64,000 nucleotides of DNA, taken from assembly GCA_963667205.1 (NCBI GenBank), contig OY762959.1, positions 1,342,399 to 1,406,398 on the forward strand, in the 5' to 3' direction. Positions within the stretch are counted from its first letter, which is position 1. Every line of letters starts with the position of its first letter. A program made the translations under genes and the position numbers. Source of the stretch: Dehalococcoidia bacterium. GTDB taxonomy: Bacteria; Chloroflexota; Dehalococcoidia; SM23-28-2; RBG-16-64-32. Below are positions 1,038-50,594 of the stretch, piece by piece. The notes beneath the pieces were generated by a model. That model did not search any database and had not been told where the DNA came from. It was given only the letters and a program-made list of their open reading frames with translations.

Positions 1038-1642
1038 CTAGCGCACGGCGTCAACCTTTACAGATACGGATGACATTTTGGCACCCCGCAGGGGTGTACC
1101 GAGATCGCTGACCTTGATCCCGATCTGATCGAGTGTATAGTCACGTTCAACGTCTCCATGGACTACACCGCATCCGACCTGCCCAGGTCCATAGGTTGCT
1201 CCACCAAGAACCAGGGCGTCCTAGTTTTCAACGGCCTCAATGCCCCCCCGCCGTCTTTGAACTAAGCTCGCTCGACGGTGTTGCCACCGTTTCGCCGCGG
1301 GCGTTCGCCTACTTCGACGAATCAGGCAACCCTGTCTTCGGGAATCCAGTGATCATCGAACGCAGCCTATTCGGGCTCTCGTTCGAACCCGTTCCCCGCC
1401 CCCTCGCCACCATCCTATTCGCTATCGACGTAATACCCTCCTTCCTTGAGCCCGACGATTGCTTCCCGCCCGCTCACCCCGATTGCGGGGTGCCTTAGGC
1501 CCATCCTTCGCTAACGGTCAGAGGGTCACCGGGTATGAGTGCCGTGAGGACGGCGGTGTAGACGCCTGACCTGGGCTTACCGACGAGCTGCCCGTGTCTG
1601 CAATCGCCGACGGTGCTTCCGAACGTACCATCTACGTAGCTC

Positions 1643-3172
1643 ATGCGGATAGGCTTGGTTCTCACCGTTCTTGGCGCGTTGTCAGTCTCCCTGGCCGCCT
1701 GCGGTGAAGACGGCGAGGGCCCGACGCAGACGCCGTCGGACGAGCCATCGCTGGCATCGACACCAACGACCCTGCCAGATGATCCTGAGGTGCTGATGGC
1801 CAGGGCGCTGCGCACGTCGTTCCGGGAGCTCGGTGGCGTCGTCGATAACGGCTCCGATCCGACGGCCGTGCGCGCGATGGGCGAAACGGGCGACGAGCGG
1901 TACATCCCGGTTCTCATCGAGATCCTGCGCTTCTCGTGGCTTCTCTCGACCGCAACCGAAGAGGCGACCTACAGCTCGCTGGCCGCGTTGACCGGCGCGA
2001 CGTACGATGACCTGGATCCGCATCAGTTCGACTGGACCTGGTGGGTTGAGTGGCTGGGAACGCAACCGGAAGTCGAGCTGCCGCCGGGGTTCGCCCGCTG
2101 GAAGGGTGAGTTGTTCGGCCAGCTCGTCGACCCGCGCATCAACGAGTTCTTCGCCCGGGATGATCTGGCCTCGAACATCAGGATCGAAGAGATCGTCTGG
2201 GGCGGTGTGCTGCGAGACGGGATACCGGACCTGCAGAACCCGCCGACGCTTAAGGCTAGACACGCGGACTACCTGCAAGCGAACGACCGCGTGTTCGGCG
2301 TGTCCTTCAACGGAGAAAGCCGCGCCTACCCACTGCGGATCCTAAACGCCCACGAGATGGCCAACGACGAGGTGGGAGGCGTTCACTTCGCCCTCGCCTA
2401 CTGAACACTCTGCGGGAGTGGAATCGTGTATTCCACAGAGGTAGAAGGGGAGGTCCTCTCCTTCGGCACGTCGGGGCTGCTGTACCGCAGCAACAAGCTG
2501 ATGTACGATCGCGGCTCGGAGACGCTCTGGGTGCAGTTCCGGGGCACACCGGCCGTCGGCCCGCTGGTAGGCAGCGGGATCGAGCTCGAAGTATTGCCCG
2601 TAACCCTGACGACGTGGAGCGACTGGCTCGAGCTTCACCCAGAGACGACGGTGCTGGACAACGACACCGGCGTCTACCCCGCGGATGCGTATCTCCCGGA
2701 GTCCAACGAGAGATCGATCTACTATGACTACCGCGCAGATACAGGGCCTATCTTTCCGGTCCATGAGCGAAGCGAACTGCTGCCGGCGAAGTCGCTCGTG
2801 CTGGGGCTAAATATCGACGGGCTACCGAAAGCGTATCCGCTGGCGAGGCTCAACGAACACCCCGTCACCAATGATGCCGTCGGCGGCACCGACATCGTCG
2901 TGATCGCAACTGACGGCATGCGGCTGTACCTCGAGAGCATCCGAGGTGCACGCGCATACGAACGAAACGGCCTCTCGTTCTCCGGTCCGGCGAGCGAAGA
3001 CGGTGTTCTGAGCGTAATAGATGCGTCGGGCAGGCGCTGGCTGCTGCGGGAAGACGCACTCGTGCTCGAGAGCAACCCTTCGCAATCGCTGCCGCGCCTG
3101 GAGAGCAGGGTCGCCTACTGGTTTGGCTGGTTCCAGTACCATCCGACGACGGCGATCTACGAAGCGCCGTAG
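1643..3172 (+). CDS. Putative lipoprotein with UxxC motif (called DUF3179 from memory of that family's YCPLCGSG motif, Pfam not verifiable); single gene read through an in-frame TGA at 2402-2404 as candidate selenocysteine
   Basis: ORFs 1643-2404 and 2426-3172 are in the same frame, separated only by TGA plus 7 sense codons. The joined product reads ...VGGVHFALAY-U-TLCGSGIVYSTE..., placing TGA at the first Cys of a CxxC-type motif. Both halves carry the same internal repeat (AYPLxxLNxHxxNDxVGG). The N-terminus has a lipobox (LSVSLAAC). Confidence 0.6.
2408..2440 (+). promoter_or_regulatory. Candidate bacterial SECIS hairpin 4 nt downstream of the in-frame TGA
   Basis: ctct(2408-2411) pairs with agag(2437-2440). 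gtggaat(2419-2425) pairs with attccac(2430-2436). The apical loop is cgtg and a 7-nt 5' bulge lies between the two stems. Loop G/U falls about 22 nt after the UGA. Confidence 0.45.
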
Positions 3173-3566
3173 CCGCATCCATTGCGGGCCTGCGGACGGC
3201 TGTGATCCGCAACGCTCGTGAAGCGGTTGCCGCAATCCTTCGACTGCACACGGAAGAACGGGCCACTGTCGAAGAAGAAGGCAACGCCAAGCCGACGATC
3301 GTGCCGGCCTCGCCGGAAGTGCCTTCTGCATCGTTGAGAATCGCATGCTGCTCACCGCGTACCATGTCTTCAACGAGGGGAAGGCCCGCGATCCGAAGGA
3401 CAAGTTCTACGCCATCATCGTTCCTCAGAACGGGGAGAAAGCCTACAACTTCCCCGTGGTCAGATTTCCGTTCGAGAGCCTCGAGTTGGACCTGACCGTT
3501 AAGCGTAAAGGCCCCGCACTCGCGAGGCCAGTGACCCAGGGAAAAGAGGCGAAGGCCTAATTCATC

Positions 3567-3736
3567 GGGATCGAGTTCGACAGCAACGCTGACAGCAACG
3601 TGGGCGGACTTCGGGGTGCAAGGGGAGTCAAGCTGAGACGCTTCTAGATACGGGAGAAACCTCTGGAGACAGCCTGAGACGCTGCACAGACAACTTTTAA
3701 TCCGGGAGTCGTGGGTTCGAATCCCACCGGGCCCTC
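3567..3736 (+). ncRNA. tRNA-like/tmRNA-like structured element, copy 1, in an intergenic region
   Basis: The 3' end contains a perfect T-arm, GTGGG-TTCGAAT-CCCAC, followed by the acceptor strand CGGGCCC. No complete cloverleaf lies upstream. About 170 nt is homologous to the element at 18847-18995. The 5' part contains GGGATCGAGTTCGAC. Confidence 0.35.
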
Positions 3737-11663: not shown

Positions 11664-12233
11664 CTAACTGACCGTTTCTCTGGCCGAAAGCTGTTCAACG
11701 AAGTCATCCAGTGGGACTTCAAACGGCAGCAGGATCCGCGCGATCATCGAGTAGTAACCGACGGTGATGGCCAGTTCGGCAACCTCGCGGTCGGAAAGCT
11801 TCTCGCGCAGCCGCTCGATGACTGAAGCGTCAACCCGGGCGGTCTTCCCAACGACTGTCGCGTACTCGACCACGGCCGTTTCCGTTTCGTCGAGGGCGTC
11901 CATCTTGCCTGCCACGACGGCGTTGATCTTGTCGTCCGCAACTCCGATCCGACGGGCGATGGCGACGTGGTGGGACCACTCGTAGTCGCACTCAGTGACC
12001 CGGGCGATGGCGAGGATCGCGAGTTCCCGGAGCGGCGCCGGCAGGGCGATCCCCTTGCGCAGAAAGACCCCGATTTGGCTTACCGTGAACGCTCCTTCTG
12101 GGCTATGGGCGATCTGGCGAAAGACGTTGCCAAAGCGTCCGTTCCGCTGCTCCTTGAGGCGCTGTATCCAGTCGTTCTGCTCGGTGCCTGTCTCAGGAAA
12201 GGGCAGACGGGCCATGTTTTTCCTCACATTCAT
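11664..12233 (-). CDS. Carboxymuconolactone decarboxylase (AhpD-like) family protein
   Basis: Carries the CMD/AhpD core motif (ARVTECDYEWSHHVA). Confidence 0.8.
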   Translation of the reverse strand: MNVRKNMARLPFPETGTEQNDWIQRLKEQRNGRFGNVFRQIAHSPEGAFTVSQIGVFLRKGIALPAPLRELAILAIARVTECDYEWSHHVAIARRIGVADDKINAVVAGKMDALDETETAVVEYATVVGKTARVDASVIERLREKLSDREVAELAITVGYYSMIARILLPFEVPLDDFVEQLSARETVS

Positions 12234-47967: not shown

Positions 47968-48522
47968 TCAAGGGTCCGAGGGAGCTTCGGTCAGCGCGTC
48001 GATAGCTTCCTGGGTCGCGCGCTCACGCAGCTCTTCGGGGTTGCTCGTCAGGTTCCCTTGTTTCGGCGAGGGTTCGATGATGAGCGGGAGGTTGGCGATC
48101 CCCAGGGCCTTGGCCTGGGCCTTGGCGGCCCGCTCGAACACGTCGTGACTCAACGTTATCGTCGGCTTCCCGGTTAGTTCCATCGCTACGGCATCACGCA
48201 CGGTGGCCGCGGTACAGGAACCTCATATACATTCTCCGTTCACCACCACATCAACCTTGGCGACGAACTCCTGGAGCATCTCTTTCGGCACCGGCTTTCC
48301 AATGTGTGGCTTCTTCTGCCAGACGACTCCGCCAAGCTCAAACTTCTCCTCGAGGCCGCTGCGGATCTGCGACATCAGCGGGTACATCTCAATCGTGCCA
48401 TCTTCCAGGGTGTGTCCCCAGCCATCGAGGAAGCCGACTACCTTACTGTTCAAGCTGCCGGGCCTCGAGGCCAGCTGCGTTTCCGTTGACTTGAACTGTG
48501 GTTCGGGTACTAAGACCTGCAC
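47968..48522 (-). CDS. UGSC-motif small protein; single gene read through in-frame TGA at 48223-48225 as candidate selenocysteine; GrdA-like motif spacing
   Basis: ORFs 48223-48522 and 47968-48201 are in the same frame with TGA between them. The joined product reads ...VVVNGECI-U-GSCTAATVRDAVAMELTG.... This resembles glycine-reductase selenoprotein A around its CxxU (ECFVUTAAGAMDLE). Confidence 0.55.
48189..48209 (-). promoter_or_regulatory. Candidate SECIS hairpin about 12 nt downstream of the UGA in the UGSC gene
   Basis: On the minus strand: cggc / cac / loop cgtgc / gtg / (at bulge) / gccg. The apical loop contains GU as in the hairpin at 2408-2440. It is weaker than that one. Confidence 0.3.
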
Positions 48523-48523
48523 T

Positions 48524-49618
48524 TCAGCCTCCTTTGCTTACCTGGGCCTCTAGCGGCCTCGTCACCGCAAAGCCTCCGTAAGTGCCCCATCCGGGAAGGA
48601 CGGCGCACCACCATTGTCCCGAGCCGCCGGTTACCAGCACGTGGATATCGTCCGGGCTATCGACTATCGGGAGCATTTCATTGTCGCTGCGGTCTCTCAC
48701 TGATGGAGCGCCGTCGACGCCCCCCCAGTGCGTTTTCACATGATCGGTCTCGTCCAGGATCTCCATCTCTCGCAGTTGACCGAGGTTCCAGCGCGCGTTC
48801 TCGAACAGGTACTCCTTCACGTCGCTGCGCTTCCAACCAGCGTCGGCCAGGGTCCGGGCCGGCTTCGGTGCGATGATGACCATGTACTGGCCGGCCGAGT
48901 GAAATGCGATCAATCCCAGAGCAGGTATCGACTGCGCCAGAATCTTCATGATGCGTTTGTCGTCGCCGGGGATGTACAGCGCGTGAGGAGGGTCGCAGGC
49001 GAACGTCGTGACCGCACTTGACGCCGCATCGACGCCGTAGTCGGTGTGGAACGGTTCCCACGGCGAGTCCTCGACGTTCTCGGCGACGCAGAACGAGAAC
49101 TTGCCGGGGTGGCCGAGCGTCGCCATGTCGGTCTCGCCGGGAAAGCCTCTGCCGAGGTTCCAGAGGATGAGCCGGATCGCCCGGCCGATCGTCGCGTTGA
49201 CGCGAGACCCGCCGGCGAAGACGTTCTCCCTGTAGTTGAACCCAAGGTCCGTGACCGCGGGCCCGCTGACGATGAGAAGCGGTGCGCAGGGATTGGTGGT
49301 GCACTGCACTCCGTTCAGGTTGAAGCGCTCCTCCAGCATGCACTTGACGCCCTCTATCACGACCGGAACGTACTCCGGGCGGCAGCCCGCCATCACACAG
49401 TTGATCGCGATCTGCTCGACCGTCGCGATCCCCAGCGCCGGCGGGATGACACCGATATCTTCGTCCCGGCCACGCCCGAGGTACTCTACTATCTCCCTTA
49501 CGGCTTCGGCGGTGGGAGGGGATACCGGCAGACCGTCGGTCCAGCCGGACTCATACGCTAGCTCCTGCCACGCGTCGTGATCGGCTACTTCGATAGACCG
49601 GGCGGCTGGAGTGCTCAT
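48524..49618 (-). CDS. Hypothetical Cys-rich protein (364 aa), between trxB and the UGSC selenoprotein gene
   Basis: ORF with coding-like composition. Cys pairs NCVMAGC and CTTNPC. Possibly glycine-reductase component-B-like; that is a speculative recollection. Confidence 0.5.
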   Translation of the reverse strand: MSTPAARSIEVADHDAWQELAYESGWTDGLPVSPPTAEAVREIVEYLGRGRDEDIGVIPPALGIATVEQIAINCVMAGCRPEYVPVVIEGVKCMLEERFNLNGVQCTTNPCAPLLIVSGPAVTDLGFNYRENVFAGGSRVNATIGRAIRLILWNLGRGFPGETDMATLGHPGKFSFCVAENVEDSPWEPFHTDYGVDAASSAVTTFACDPPHALYIPGDDKRIMKILAQSIPALGLIAFHSAGQYMVIIAPKPARTLADAGWKRSDVKEYLFENARWNLGQLREMEILDETDHVKTHWGGVDGAPSVRDRSDNEMLPIVDSPDDIHVLVTGGSGQWWCAVLPGWGTYGGFAVTRPLEAQVSKGG

Positions 49619-49631
49619 ATTGTCGGCTCGA

Positions 49632-50594
49632 TCATGACAGTGATTGCCTTTCGTTCGCCTGGCCGTTGCGGAGGTAGGCCAGCGCGTTCAGCGCCGCTGT
49701 GGCGCCATCGCCCGCGGCCGATACGAGCTGCCGGGACGAATAACGGCGGATATCTCCCGCAGCGTAGAGGCCCGGCTGCCCCGCGCTGAGGTCGTGGTCG
49801 ACGGTGATGTGCCCACGCTCGTCGGTCGTGACGACGTCGCGGATAGGCCCGATGTTCGGCGTGAGACCGATGAAGATGAAGACTCCACTGACCGGGATCG
49901 TCTCATCCTTGCCCGAACCCGCGTCCGCGATGGCGATCTCCTGCACGACGGTGTCGCCACGGATCTCCTTGACGACGCTTCTGGTGTGTACGTGAATGTT
50001 CGGCGTCTCGTTCACGCGTTCCTGCAGCACGGCTGCCGCCCCCAGACCTTCTCCGCGAATCAGGAGGTGGACATCGCTGGCAAAGGTGCTCAGAGTGAGC
50101 GCCTCGTCGCAGGCGCTGTCGCCGCTTCCTACCACTGCCACGGGCAGACCCTTGAGCAGGGGGCCGTCGCAGGTGGCGCAGTCGGACACGCCGTGGCCGA
50201 AGAACTGCTCCTCACCGGGGATGCCCAGCGACTGCCGGGTCGACCCCACGCAGATGATGACTGCTCGTGCGCGGACGGCACCGTCCGGAGTCGCGAGTTC
50301 CCAGTGCCCGTTGACGGCGCTCAGCGCTTCGACTTCGACTCCCATCCTCAGATCTGCGCCGGCGTCCAGCAACTGCTCGAGCATGTTCGTGGCAAGCTCG
50401 TGACCGGCAATCGGGCCCGATGTCCCGGCGTAGTTCTCAACGTGTTCGGCTGTGGCGATCTGGCCGCCTGGACTGCTTTTCTCGAAAACGATGGTTTGTG
50501 CACCCCCGCGCTGAGCGTATATCGCAGCTGACACGCCCGCGGCGCCGGCGCCGATTATCGCGATTTCAGTATCTTCCAAAGATTCCGCCCGCAC
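49632..50594 (-). CDS. trxB: Thioredoxin-disulfide reductase
   Basis: FAD motif IAIIGAGAAG, redox-active CATCDG, NADPH motif VVGSGDSA. Confidence 0.85.
   Translation of the reverse strand: MRAESLEDTEIAIIGAGAAGVSAAIYAQRGGAQTIVFEKSSPGGQIATAEHVENYAGTSGPIAGHELATNMLEQLLDAGADLRMGVEVEALSAVNGHWELATPDGAVRARAVIICVGSTRQSLGIPGEEQFFGHGVSDCATCDGPLLKGLPVAVVGSGDSACDEALTLSTFASDVHLLIRGEGLGAAAVLQERVNETPNIHVHTRSVVKEIRGDTVVQEIAIADAGSGKDETIPVSGVFIFIGLTPNIGPIRDVVTTDERGHITVDHDLSAGQPGLYAAGDIRRYSSRQLVSAAGDGATAALNALAYLRNGQANERQSLS

Follow-up and report, generated by a model that had tools for sequence, protein, structure and literature searches.

A probable Sec-containing DUF3179 lipoprotein gene with a conserved SECIS-type hairpin in a SAR202-type Dehalococcoidia bacterium

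One reading frame across an in-frame TGA

The window, by which we mean the whole 64-kb stretch of DNA that was analysed, encodes a DUF3179 protein at 1643-3172 that the source gene calls split into two ORFs, each tagged PF11376. These ORFs, 1643-2404 (+ strand, 253 aa, ATG start) and 2426-3172 (+ strand, 248 aa, GTG start), share a frame, as the original prediction had proposed. Together they form one frame of 509 codons in which the gap is a TGA plus seven codons (2405-2425). Translation of the whole interval meets a single internal stop, TGA 2402-2404, in the context VHFALAY-stop-TLCGSGIVYS, and the read-through peptide around residue 254 (X) is ...FALAY-X-TLCGSGIVYSTEVEGEVLSFGTSGLLYR. The features of the locus are collected in Table 1. 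The gene sits on a 4.57-Mb contig, ctg125599 of ENA ERZ28763718.

Table 1. Features of the DUF3179 locus, in window coordinates
Feature	Position	Strand	Remarks
Putative DUF3179 selenoprotein CDS, complete	1643..3172	+	509 codons including UGA-Sec254; stop TAG 3170-3172
Predicted signal peptide with lipobox L-A-A-C	1643..1702	+	aa 1-20, read directly from the sequence
N-terminal helical HEAT-like domain	1790..2197	+	about aa 50-185
DUF3179 domain, mostly beta, with internal duplication	2213..3151	+	aa 191-503
Internal repeat, copy 1	2261..2395	+	aa 207-251; ends just 5' of the putative Sec codon
In-frame UGA, putative Sec254	2402..2404	+	first residue of U-T-L-C; Cys column in homologues
SECIS-type element within the CDS	2405..2441	+	comparative fold, covariation, synonymous conservation
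Cys257 codon TGC	2411..2413	+	partner in U-x-x-C; invariant in 120/120 homologues
Core hairpin	2418..2436	+	stem GUGGAAU 2418-2424, loop CGUGU 2425-2429, stem AUUCCAC 2430-2436
Internal repeat, copy 2	2768..2902	+	aa 376-420; degenerate, without C-x-x-C after it

With Cys substituted at the TGA, the protein matches PF11376 (DUF3179) in Pfam with an E-value of 3.9e-75 (253.4 bits, cut-off 27). One domain match, running across the TGA, aligns residues 191-503 with the entire profile (positions 1-292 of 292), which bears out the predicted family assignment. An NCBIfam scan of the read-through protein gave no match; the release searched was without a DUF3179 model. Only two TGA-bridged frames in the window have both a coding signature on either side and a match to a known family, namely this gene and a gene of the UGSC family. 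The DUF3179 frame is far beyond chance.

The protein starts with Met-Arg followed by a hydrophobic stretch and the lipobox L-A-A-C20 (MRIGLVLTVLGALSVSLAAC, Cys20 codon 1700-1702), which fits the pattern [LVI][ASTVI][GAS]C and is consistent with the lipoprotein signal peptide claimed earlier. Cys20 is predicted to be the lipidated N-terminus of the mature protein, and no twin-arginine motif occurs in the signal peptide (1643-1702). In alignment A2, which comprises the window protein and 119 homologues (n = 120, with the window UGA entered as Cys), just three Cys columns are conserved across the family, and Cys20 is among them. By a simple, looser regular expression, 95 of these 120 sequences have a lipobox-like N-terminus, as do 69 of the 81 DUF3179 genes that were rebuilt from loci L001-L081.

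The DUF3179 domain contains the internal repeat that had been noticed from the sequence. BLASTP of the halves aligns aa 207-251 with aa 376-420 at 38% identity over 45 residues (E 2e-8), and the TGA separates the two copies, one lying on each side. The first copy holds H237-E238 (2351-2356) and D242, which are invariant in 120/120 sequences.

If the UGA were a true stop, as the two annotated ORFs would have it, the locus would encode a 253-aa lipoprotein (HEAT plus a truncated first repeat) and a 248-aa cytoplasmic protein initiated at GTG 2426. TGA often serves as a stop codon in this genome, and it terminates 17 of the 38 Pfam-supported genes in the window, so a genome-wide reassignment of the codon is not indicated. 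Termination at 2402-2404 would nevertheless break one Pfam domain in two and leave a C-terminal piece without a signal peptide. In the AF2 model of homologue P0001, it would also part two neighbouring beta strands of the DUF3179 domain. None of the full-length homologues is split at this point, and the seven codons from TGA to GTG (T-L-C-G-S-G-I) are highly conserved. We consider termination here extremely unlikely.

Conservation of the TGA codon and of a downstream hairpin

The best protein homologues (E down to 7e-197) are all tagged PF11376. At the Sec254 column, 119 of the 120 sequences in A2 have Cys, the window row being counted as Cys, and Y253, L256 and C257 are invariant in all 120. 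The TGA therefore falls on the first Cys of a conserved C-x-x-C, as predicted. The motif proposed for this position, YCPLCGSG, reads YCTLCG[SA]G in this subfamily.

Among the 80 best GTDB species-level relatives (42-56% identity; Dehalococcoidia, Chloroflexota, including SAR202 bin22), 79 have TGA at the Sec column and the remaining one has TGC. tblastn matches cross the TGA site in 80 loci, with the protein sequence kept on either side. Of the 81 genes of L001-L081, 79 are distinct Sec forms, the window among them, and the other two are a duplicate locus and a Cys form; all 79 Sec forms also keep the Cys257 codon. The exact TGA-plus-hairpin pattern occurs in at least 81 metagenome contigs.

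The hairpin lies within the coding sequence just 3' of the TGA. GGAAU-CGUGU-AUUCC lies 15 nt downstream of the TGA, its apical loop begins 20 nt after the UGA, and a lower stem pairing CUCUG (2408-2412) with CAGAG (2436-2440) is possible. Across the 79 Sec forms GGAAU/CGUGU/AUUCC is invariant or nearly so, synonymous third positions included. The hairpin codons GGA, ATC, GTG, TAT and TCC are fixed in 74, 75, 79, 79 and 79 of 79 genes, respectively; elsewhere in these genes they make up 16%, 59%, 44%, 28% and 40% of their synonymous families. RNAalifold yields the same hairpin, and its closing pair 18:34 covaries (C-G 36, U-A 26, G-C 1). Pairing amounts to 78.7% versus at most 56.7% with a slid partner, and the covariation score is 0.121 versus 0.067 in shuffles, with 0 of 500 shuffles reaching 0.121. 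The minimum free energy (MFE) is -13.5 to -14.1 kcal/mol over 40-48 nt (-14.1 at 48 nt) and -7.8 for the 21-nt core; the single-sequence MFE fold places the apical loop in another register than the comparative fold. The hairpin is missing from the two Cys-form genes examined, L002 and L082 (P0001), both of which nevertheless encode G-I-V/A-Y.

This pattern also bears on whether the TGA arose by an error in sequencing or assembly (the true codon being TGC or TGT) or by a recent inactivation, leaving a Cys-form gene or a pseudogene. One base change turns a Cys codon into TGA, and Cys forms make up the closest full-length relatives in the protein database (P0001-P0011, 53-62% identity). Errors or changes at the codon do occur, as in L083, which has TGG (Trp) at the site and keeps the hairpin; its contig record is tagged '2x', perhaps denoting low read coverage. 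Such an origin is effectively refuted by the same TGA in 79 independent species-level genomes and in the metagenome contigs, by coding signature and protein conservation that are equal on either side of it, and by a hairpin that is found in every TGA form, absent from both Cys forms examined and conserved at synonymous sites.

Among bacterial SECIS elements (bSECIS), that of E. coli fdhF serves as the experimental prototype. Like a bSECIS, the window stem-loop lies inside the CDS just 3' of the UGA and has a 5-nt loop with G-U at positions 2-3; a bulged U like fdhF U17 was not identified in it. A further difference is that the core GGAAUCGUGUAUUCC is fixed in at least 79 species, whereas bSECIS elements usually vary far more between organisms. 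The bSECIS consensus criteria of Zhang & Gladyshev, summarised by Zhang et al. 2026 (PMC13188914), are a loop of 3-9 nt, a stem of 4-16 bp, a G in the first two loop positions, a UGA-to-loop distance of 16-37 nt and an MFE of at most -7.5. The window hairpin agrees with all of them (loop 5 nt, stem 5-7 bp, spacing 20 nt, core MFE -7.8) and fits the model of a SelB-type bSECIS. An Rfam scan of the whole window at gathering thresholds gave no matches, to bacterial SECIS models or any others, and under permissive settings the interval 2350-2520 matched miRNA, snoRNA and sRNA models at chance level only.

Probable selenocysteine decoding in a known selenoprotein family

The interval 1643-3172 is best explained as one Sec-containing DUF3179 gene of a SAR202-type Dehalococcoidia, and we place the probability of this full explanation at about 0.88. 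The UGA at 2402-2404 is very likely decoded as selenocysteine because the TGA is conserved across species, the SECIS-type hairpin is conserved and covaries, and a second selenoprotein gene lies in the window. These same three observations uphold the Sec reading put forward from the sequence. Recoding would follow the standard bacterial route, in which SelB carrying Sec-tRNA(Sec) would bind the hairpin that directly follows the UGA in the mRNA. This hairpin has the core GUGGAAU-CGUGU-AUUCCAC, with its loop 20 nt past the UGA.

The second gene belongs to the UGSC family (PF24696, NF041046), a known selenoprotein family, and has its in-frame TGA at 48223-48225. Its predicted fold has the apical loop CGUGC, also starting 20 nt after the UGA, and shows no significant gain in stability over shuffled sequence (z = 0.32). 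No selA, selB, selD or tRNA-Sec was found in the 64-kb window (tRNA scan; Pfam on about 50 ORFs) or at any homologue locus examined. Approximate E. coli SelA, SelB and SelD sequences were also searched by tblastn against 165 loci. The sole match was a SelA-like gene adjoining DUF3179 in L085, L120, L131 and L162. Pfam and NCBIfam assign this neighbour to the DgaE-family ammonia-lyases (TIGR01437, E 5.5e-69), and it was therefore rejected as evidence of Sec machinery.

Alternatively, a near-cognate or suppressor tRNA could insert a standard amino acid (Trp, Cys or Gly) at the UGA, with the hairpin acting as a general read-through stimulator. The failure to find Sec machinery in the sequence examined and the Trp codon beside a retained hairpin in L083 would suit this explanation, which we nonetheless judge very unlikely. 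The site is the first Cys of a C-x-x-C, the classic position of Sec/Cys exchange, and the hairpin fits the SelB type, with G-U in a small loop 20 nt from the UGA. The UGSC gene has a predicted hairpin with a similar loop at the same spacing, and DUF3179 is already catalogued among selenoprotein families in the tables cited below.

DUF3179 (pfam11376, motif UxxC/T) is tabulated as a prokaryotic selenoprotein family by Zhang et al. 2022 (PMC9312934) and likewise listed by Zhang et al. 2026 (PMC13188914). Both reviews credit Zhang & Gladyshev 2007 (PMC1976440) for the family and give MBW1804167.1 and MDJ0986319.1 as example accessions. NCBI names homologue P0024 'DUF3179 domain-containing (seleno)protein [Dehalococcoidia bacterium]'. 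Since the family is already listed, the window gene is an ordinary new DUF3179 member, and the suggestion of a new selenoprotein does not stand. It resembles the known DUF3179 selenoproteins in matching the same Pfam family over its full length, in placing Sec at the first residue of U-x-x-C and in having abundant Cys homologues, and it differs from them in nothing essential. Particular to this copy are its SAR202-type Dehalococcoidia host, the N-terminal lipoprotein signal, the HEAT-like domain and the gene calls split in two. A literature search on Sec use in SAR202 found nothing specific.

A predicted surface protein and its possible role

The surroundings of the gene give no clue to its function. 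Clustering the flanking ORFs of 80 loci turned up clade-specific, unrelated enzymes and no neighbour conserved throughout, and so no operon context. A promoter and terminator scan of 1100-3700 gave nothing useful.

We infer the architecture from the AF2 model of P0001, a Cys-form homologue with 62% identity to the window protein. A HEAT-like helical domain appears to be followed by a duplicated, mostly beta DUF3179 domain, part of which is modelled with a Rieske-type or NirD-like beta fold. The modelled fold is not thioredoxin-like, unlike that of the thioredoxin-fold thiol:disulfide oxidoreductases with CxxC/UxxC. In the model, the Cys matching Sec254 closes a beta strand and the following x-x-C-G forms a loop to the next strand. 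This suggests an exported lipoprotein whose U-x-x-C lies in or beside a Rieske/NirD-like beta domain. By sequence, PDB searches with the full protein gave only HEAT/alphaRep noise, those with a profile of the first beta repeat gave nothing meaningful, and no solved structure of a DUF3179 homologue was found.

The U-x-x-C motif lies 17 residues after the invariant His-Glu. This spacing is reminiscent of boxes I and II of the Rieske ligands, but the residues read H...C/U-x-x-C where a Rieske protein has CxH...CxxH. The Rieske ligand motif C-x-H...C-x-x-H itself does not occur in the window protein, which has N-A-H-E...U-T-L-C, and there is no Pfam Rieske match. An hmmsearch against Rieske and NirD sequences returned nothing, and hhalign of the first-beta-repeat profile with approximate BphF and NirD sequences produced no alignment. 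For this reason we infer from motif spacing and modelled secondary structure only that Sec254 may sit at a Rieske ligand position. DUF3179 differs from Rieske [2Fe-2S] and cluster-less NirD-like proteins (PDB 3c0d, 2qpz, 3gce) in its ligand motifs and lacks Pfam, HMM or hhalign similarity to them. Its signal peptide is non-Tat, and its duplicated domain is joined to a HEAT-like one. Given these differences, DUF3179 is not a Rieske protein.

The 509-aa preprotein would leave the cell via the Sec translocon, and lipidation of Cys20 would anchor it on the outer face of the cytoplasmic membrane. Our best guess for its activity, offered as a hypothesis, is that Sec254-Cys257 forms a redox-active selenylsulfide acting on an extracytoplasmic substrate. 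An extracytoplasmic thiol/selenol oxidoreductase, as the original prediction had it, is one possible reading of the protein. Selenocysteine would be more nucleophilic and would better withstand over-oxidation in oxic sea water. Tables of the same reviews also include DsbA-like, DsbG-like and thiol:disulfide interchange families as predicted exported selenoproteins (PMC9312934, PMC13188914). The window protein resembles such oxidoreductases in its predicted extracytoplasmic location, in the UxxC or CxxU motif and in Sec replacing a redox Cys.

The main alternative keeps the same Sec decoding and casts Sec254, Cys257 and His237 (possibly with Glu238/Asp242) as ligands in a mononuclear metal site, with a Rieske-derived fold as the scaffold. 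In that case the protein would bind, sense or transfer electrons via a metal and would have no redox-active selenylsulfide. A metal-ligand role for Sec is possible given the Rieske/NirD-like beta domain of the model and its departure from the thioredoxin fold, and we hold this alternative as plausible but tentative. Only three candidate ligand positions are occupied, their mapping onto Rieske ligands is putative, and the non-Tat signal peptide speaks against a pre-assembled cofactor. The UxxT variants in the tables of PMC9312934 and PMC13188914 are also easier to reconcile with one catalytic Sec than with a two-thiolate site.

As a selenoprotein discovery, the gene contributes little, since the literature and NCBI naming already contain the family, the Sec position and the UxxC motif. 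Its value lies in annotation, as a gene caller has split one selenoprotein gene into two ORFs. Because of such splitting, protein databases show mainly Cys forms, though 79 of the 80 closest species-level relatives encode Sec, and the selenoproteomes of Dehalococcoidia and SAR202 are likely under-counted. The invariant SECIS core GGAAUCGUGUAUUCC is usable as a search tag. The Rieske/NirD-like fold modelled for part of the domain and the conserved lipoprotein anchor may help to assign a function to DUF3179. Neither this fold nor the clade-wide distribution of Sec is mentioned in the available text of PMC9312934 and PMC13188914.

We speculate further that this Rieske-derived exported lipoprotein carries a new extracytoplasmic selenolate centre, metal or catalytic, built from Sec254, Cys257 and His237 and with Sec kept clade-wide, a proposal we rate as rather unlikely. 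If true, it would mean that the SAR202/Dehalococcoidia relatives sampled have mostly kept Sec, together with a SECIS that is unusually frozen. It would also tie selenium to a clade-wide cell-surface function of SAR202, which are among the most abundant deep-ocean bacteria.

The DUF3179 frame and its internal TGA

Translation across the two separately listed ORFs gives a single 509-codon frame whose sole internal stop is a TGA (...GGVHFALAY-stop-TLCGSGIVYSTE...), as had been predicted. With Cys put for this stop, the read-through protein matches PF11376 (DUF3179) over profile positions 1-292 of 292 (residues 191-503, E 3.9e-75), so that one domain match crosses the TGA and the earlier family call holds. 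The predicted lipobox is present at the end of the N-terminal segment MRIGLVLTVLGALSVSLAAC, and the internal domain repeat is recovered between aa 207-251 and aa 376-420 (38% identity, E 2e-8).

The original prediction placed the TGA at the first Cys of a C-x-x-C motif and proposed homologues as the test. Ten of the best full-length database homologues were examined, and all carry Y-C-[TS]-L-C-G. In an alignment of the window protein with 119 homologues, 119 of the 120 rows carry Cys at the Sec column; the exception is a Trp in the database protein P0015. The second Cys, Y253, L256, H237, E238 and D242 are invariant across all rows.

Because Sec forms cannot appear full length in protein databases, relatives were sought in DNA, using one genome per GTDB species. 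The 80 closest loci share 42-56% identity with the query; 79 are titled Dehalococcoidia or Chloroflexota MAGs, 'SAR202 cluster bacterium bin22' among them, and one (L057) is titled Actinomycetes. TGA stands at exactly the same column in 79 of these 80 species-level relatives, with TGC in locus L002, so that sequencing error, assembly artefact and recent pseudogene can all be ruled out. Among metagenome contigs, a pattern scan identified at least 81 further stretches with the TGA and a downstream hairpin, several of them titled marine metagenome. TGA also ends 17 of the 38 Pfam-supported window genes; UGA is thus not reassigned across the genome, and its recoding here hinges on local context.

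At locus L083 (10571-10573; ENA ERZ25766727 ctg350188_2x_l), which encodes P0015, the Sec column reads TGG and the hairpin GGAATCGTGTATTCC is intact. This reflects a recent Sec-to-Trp change or else an error, and the '2x' in the record name perhaps denotes low read coverage. At locus L076 (110-1999; CBDCTY010000002.1) the Sec-form gene is immediately preceded by a tandem DUF3179 paralogue of the Cys form (...IVLAQCVLCGSGVVYS...), so both versions are kept side by side in some genomes. About 15-17 Sec-form orthologues (L007, L011, L018, L021-L025, L027-L030, L032, L045 and others) measure 705-735 aa; in them an additional ~200-aa N-terminal region separates the lipobox from the HEAT-like domain, and Sec is at residue 453-486.

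Features of the window and of one related locus
Feature	Location	Strand	Remarks
DUF3179 gene	1643-3172	+	internal TGA 2402-2404
Listed ORF 1	1643-2404	+	253 aa, ATG; same frame as ORF 2
Listed ORF 2	2426-3172	+	248 aa, GTG; same frame as ORF 1
Hairpin stem GUGGAAU/AUUCCAC	2418-2436	+	7 bp; -7.8 kcal/mol (21-nt core), -14.1 over 48 nt
UGSC family gene	47970-48522	-	TGA 48223-48225; 183 codons when read through
Apparent three-gene operon including UGSC	48223-50594	-	
Thioredoxin-reductase-like flavoprotein (Pyr_redox_2)	50594->49632	-	operon gene
364-aa protein	49618->48524	-	operon gene; no Pfam or NCBIfam match
SelA-Pfam-family gene	L085 3826-4956	-	1-2 kb from Sec-form DUF3179; likewise in L120, L131, L162

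The hairpin downstream of the UGA

In the 79 Sec forms the consensus 3' of the TGA is ACN CTN TGC GGN NNN GGA ATC GTG TAT TCC. Third positions of the first codons are free to vary (column 6, for example, is A5, G32, C30, T12); those of GGA-ATC-GTG-TAT-TCC are fixed in 74, 75, 79, 79 and 79 of the 79 genes, respectively. Elsewhere in the same genes these five codons account for 16%, 59%, 44%, 28% and 40% of their own synonymous families, a difference that points to selection on RNA rather than protein.

RNAalifold pairs GGAAU with AUUCC around the loop CGUGU. The closing pair 18:34 covaries (C-G 36, U-A 26, G-C 1), an 8-bp version of the stem has 78.7% of cells paired versus at most 56.7% with the partner slid, and the covariation score of 0.121, against 0.067 in shuffles, was reached by none of 500 shuffles. 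The bacterial SECIS model given in PMC13188914 has a stem of 4-16 bp, a loop of 3-9 nt with a G among its first two bases, a UGA-loop distance of 16-37 nt and an MFE of -7.5 or lower; the DUF3179 hairpin, spaced 20 nt from the UGA, agrees with it on every point.

The hairpin accompanies the TGA in every gene examined, except at L083. It is missing from the Cys forms L082 (encoding P0001) and L002, which read GGC ATC GTG TAC GCA and GGG ATA GCC TAT GTC at its position and keep the protein motif G-I-V/A-Y. Together, the Cys column in homologues, the TGA in relatives and the SECIS-type hairpin uphold the predicted reading of the UGA as a Sec codon, very likely recoded through this element within the coding region.

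A second strong hairpin, GAAGGGGAGG-UCC-UCUCCUUC (2443-2463, + strand; 9 bp), lies about 40 nt 3' of the UGA and provides a large share of the -30 kcal/mol for the fold of 2396-2470. Orthologues do not conserve it, so it probably lies outside the SECIS.

In a rough neighbour-joining tree, the window protein clusters with P0001-P0011 and L002, all Cys forms, next to clades made up mostly of Sec forms. Since distant Sec clades share the window hairpin without change and the Cys form P0001 has it in a decayed state, Sec is probably ancestral in the Dehalococcoidia DUF3179 subfamily, with Cys derived in some lineages.

Signs of selenocysteine use elsewhere in the window

No selA, selB, selD or tRNA-Sec was found in the 64-kb window, a section of a 4.57-Mb contig (ENA ERZ28763718, ctg125599); the window has no tRNA, and ~50 ORFs in it gave no such Pfam domains. 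SelA-like tblastn matches beside DUF3179 in four metagenome loci were dropped as SelA and are DgaE-family lyases; the gene in L085 is a DgaE-family PLP ammonia-lyase and not a selenocysteine synthase (NCBIfam TIGR01437, E 5.5e-69).

The window also encodes a UGSC family protein with an in-frame TGA (...VVNGECI-U-GSCTAATV...). Its N-terminal part matches Pfam 'UGSC family' (PF24696), and the read-through protein matches NCBIfam NF041046 'UGSC family (seleno)protein' across the TGA with an E of 7e-22, below the curated cut-off. UGSC is catalogued as a selenoprotein family in PMC9312934 and PMC13188914. The predicted hairpin does not exceed shuffled sequence in fold stability (z = 0.32), but its apical loop CGUGC, which begins at a distance of 20 nt from the UGA, resembles the DUF3179 loop CGUGU in type and spacing. 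Two independent genes with a like signature in one window would fit a common SelB-binding signal. The UGSC start GTG (48522) is preceded by an AAGGAGG Shine-Dalgarno and lies 1 nt past the upstream stop; the flavoprotein of the apparent operon may be a redox partner of UGSC.

A CMD/AhpD-like protein (11664-12233, - strand) weakly matches 'peroxidase-related enzyme' and 'YciW-related (seleno)protein' models (NF053654, E 1.6e-6, far below cut-off). Its ORF has no in-frame TGA and so appears to be the Cys form of another family with selenoprotein members. The whole window (1-64000) and L001 have the gene content expected of a SAR202-type catabolic region and are rich in paralogues: hydantoinase A and B (three B copies), two CoA-transferase III, two MmgE/PrpD, two methylmalonyl-CoA-mutase-like genes with a B12-binding subunit, AtuA with AtuA_ferredoxin or DUF4387, thiolase/ChsH2 pairs, two amidases, luciferase-like monooxygenases and two peptide-type ABC transporter sets.

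Export, chemistry and family status

Of the 81 genes rebuilt from loci L001-L081, 69 have a lipobox-like N-terminus by a simple pattern, as do 95 of the 120 aligned sequences. Since the signal peptide lacks a twin-arginine motif, the protein probably crosses the cytoplasmic membrane unfolded and is held on its outer side by a lipid anchor. We infer from these sequence features that the product is an exported lipoprotein.

A structure model of P0001, a 62%-identical Cys form, was made from 119 aligned sequences (pLDDT 93.2). The N-terminal third is predicted to be helical and HEAT-like and the DUF3179 part is for the most part beta; the motif's first Cys closes a strand, and x-x-C-G forms the loop into the next. 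A Foldseek search with the whole chain returned no significant match, no solved homologue was found, and there were no conserved neighbouring genes to give a functional clue.

An invariant His-Glu lies 17 residues upstream of the motif's first Cys. Rieske proteins bind their cluster through CxH ... CxxH motifs, and His237, Sec254 and Cys257 may fall at three of the four ligand positions. HMM and hhalign comparisons with Rieske/NirD sequences gave no match, and neither motif nor profile identifies a Rieske protein. The main alternative would be a Rieske-derived scaffold carrying a His/Sec/Cys metal site, which we consider conceivable at less than even odds. We favour, with a probability of roughly 0.45, a redox-active Sec254-Cys257 selenylsulfide, because Sec takes the place of the first Cys in C-x-x-C, and because PMC9312934 and PMC13188914 list UxxT variants of DUF3179 and mostly redox proteins among catalogued selenoprotein families.

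The suggestion of a new selenoprotein family does not stand. PMC9312934 (2022) and PMC13188914 (2026) both include DUF3179 (pfam11376, UxxC/T) in their tables of selenoprotein families, with credit to Zhang & Gladyshev 2007, and NCBI names the homologue P0024 'DUF3179 domain-containing (seleno)protein [Dehalococcoidia bacterium]'. The window gene adds a new member, split in error, to a selenoprotein family that is already known. Its added value is minor: a clade-wide Sec form in SAR202-type genomes, a frozen SECIS core and a putative, model-based assignment to a Rieske/NirD-like fold.
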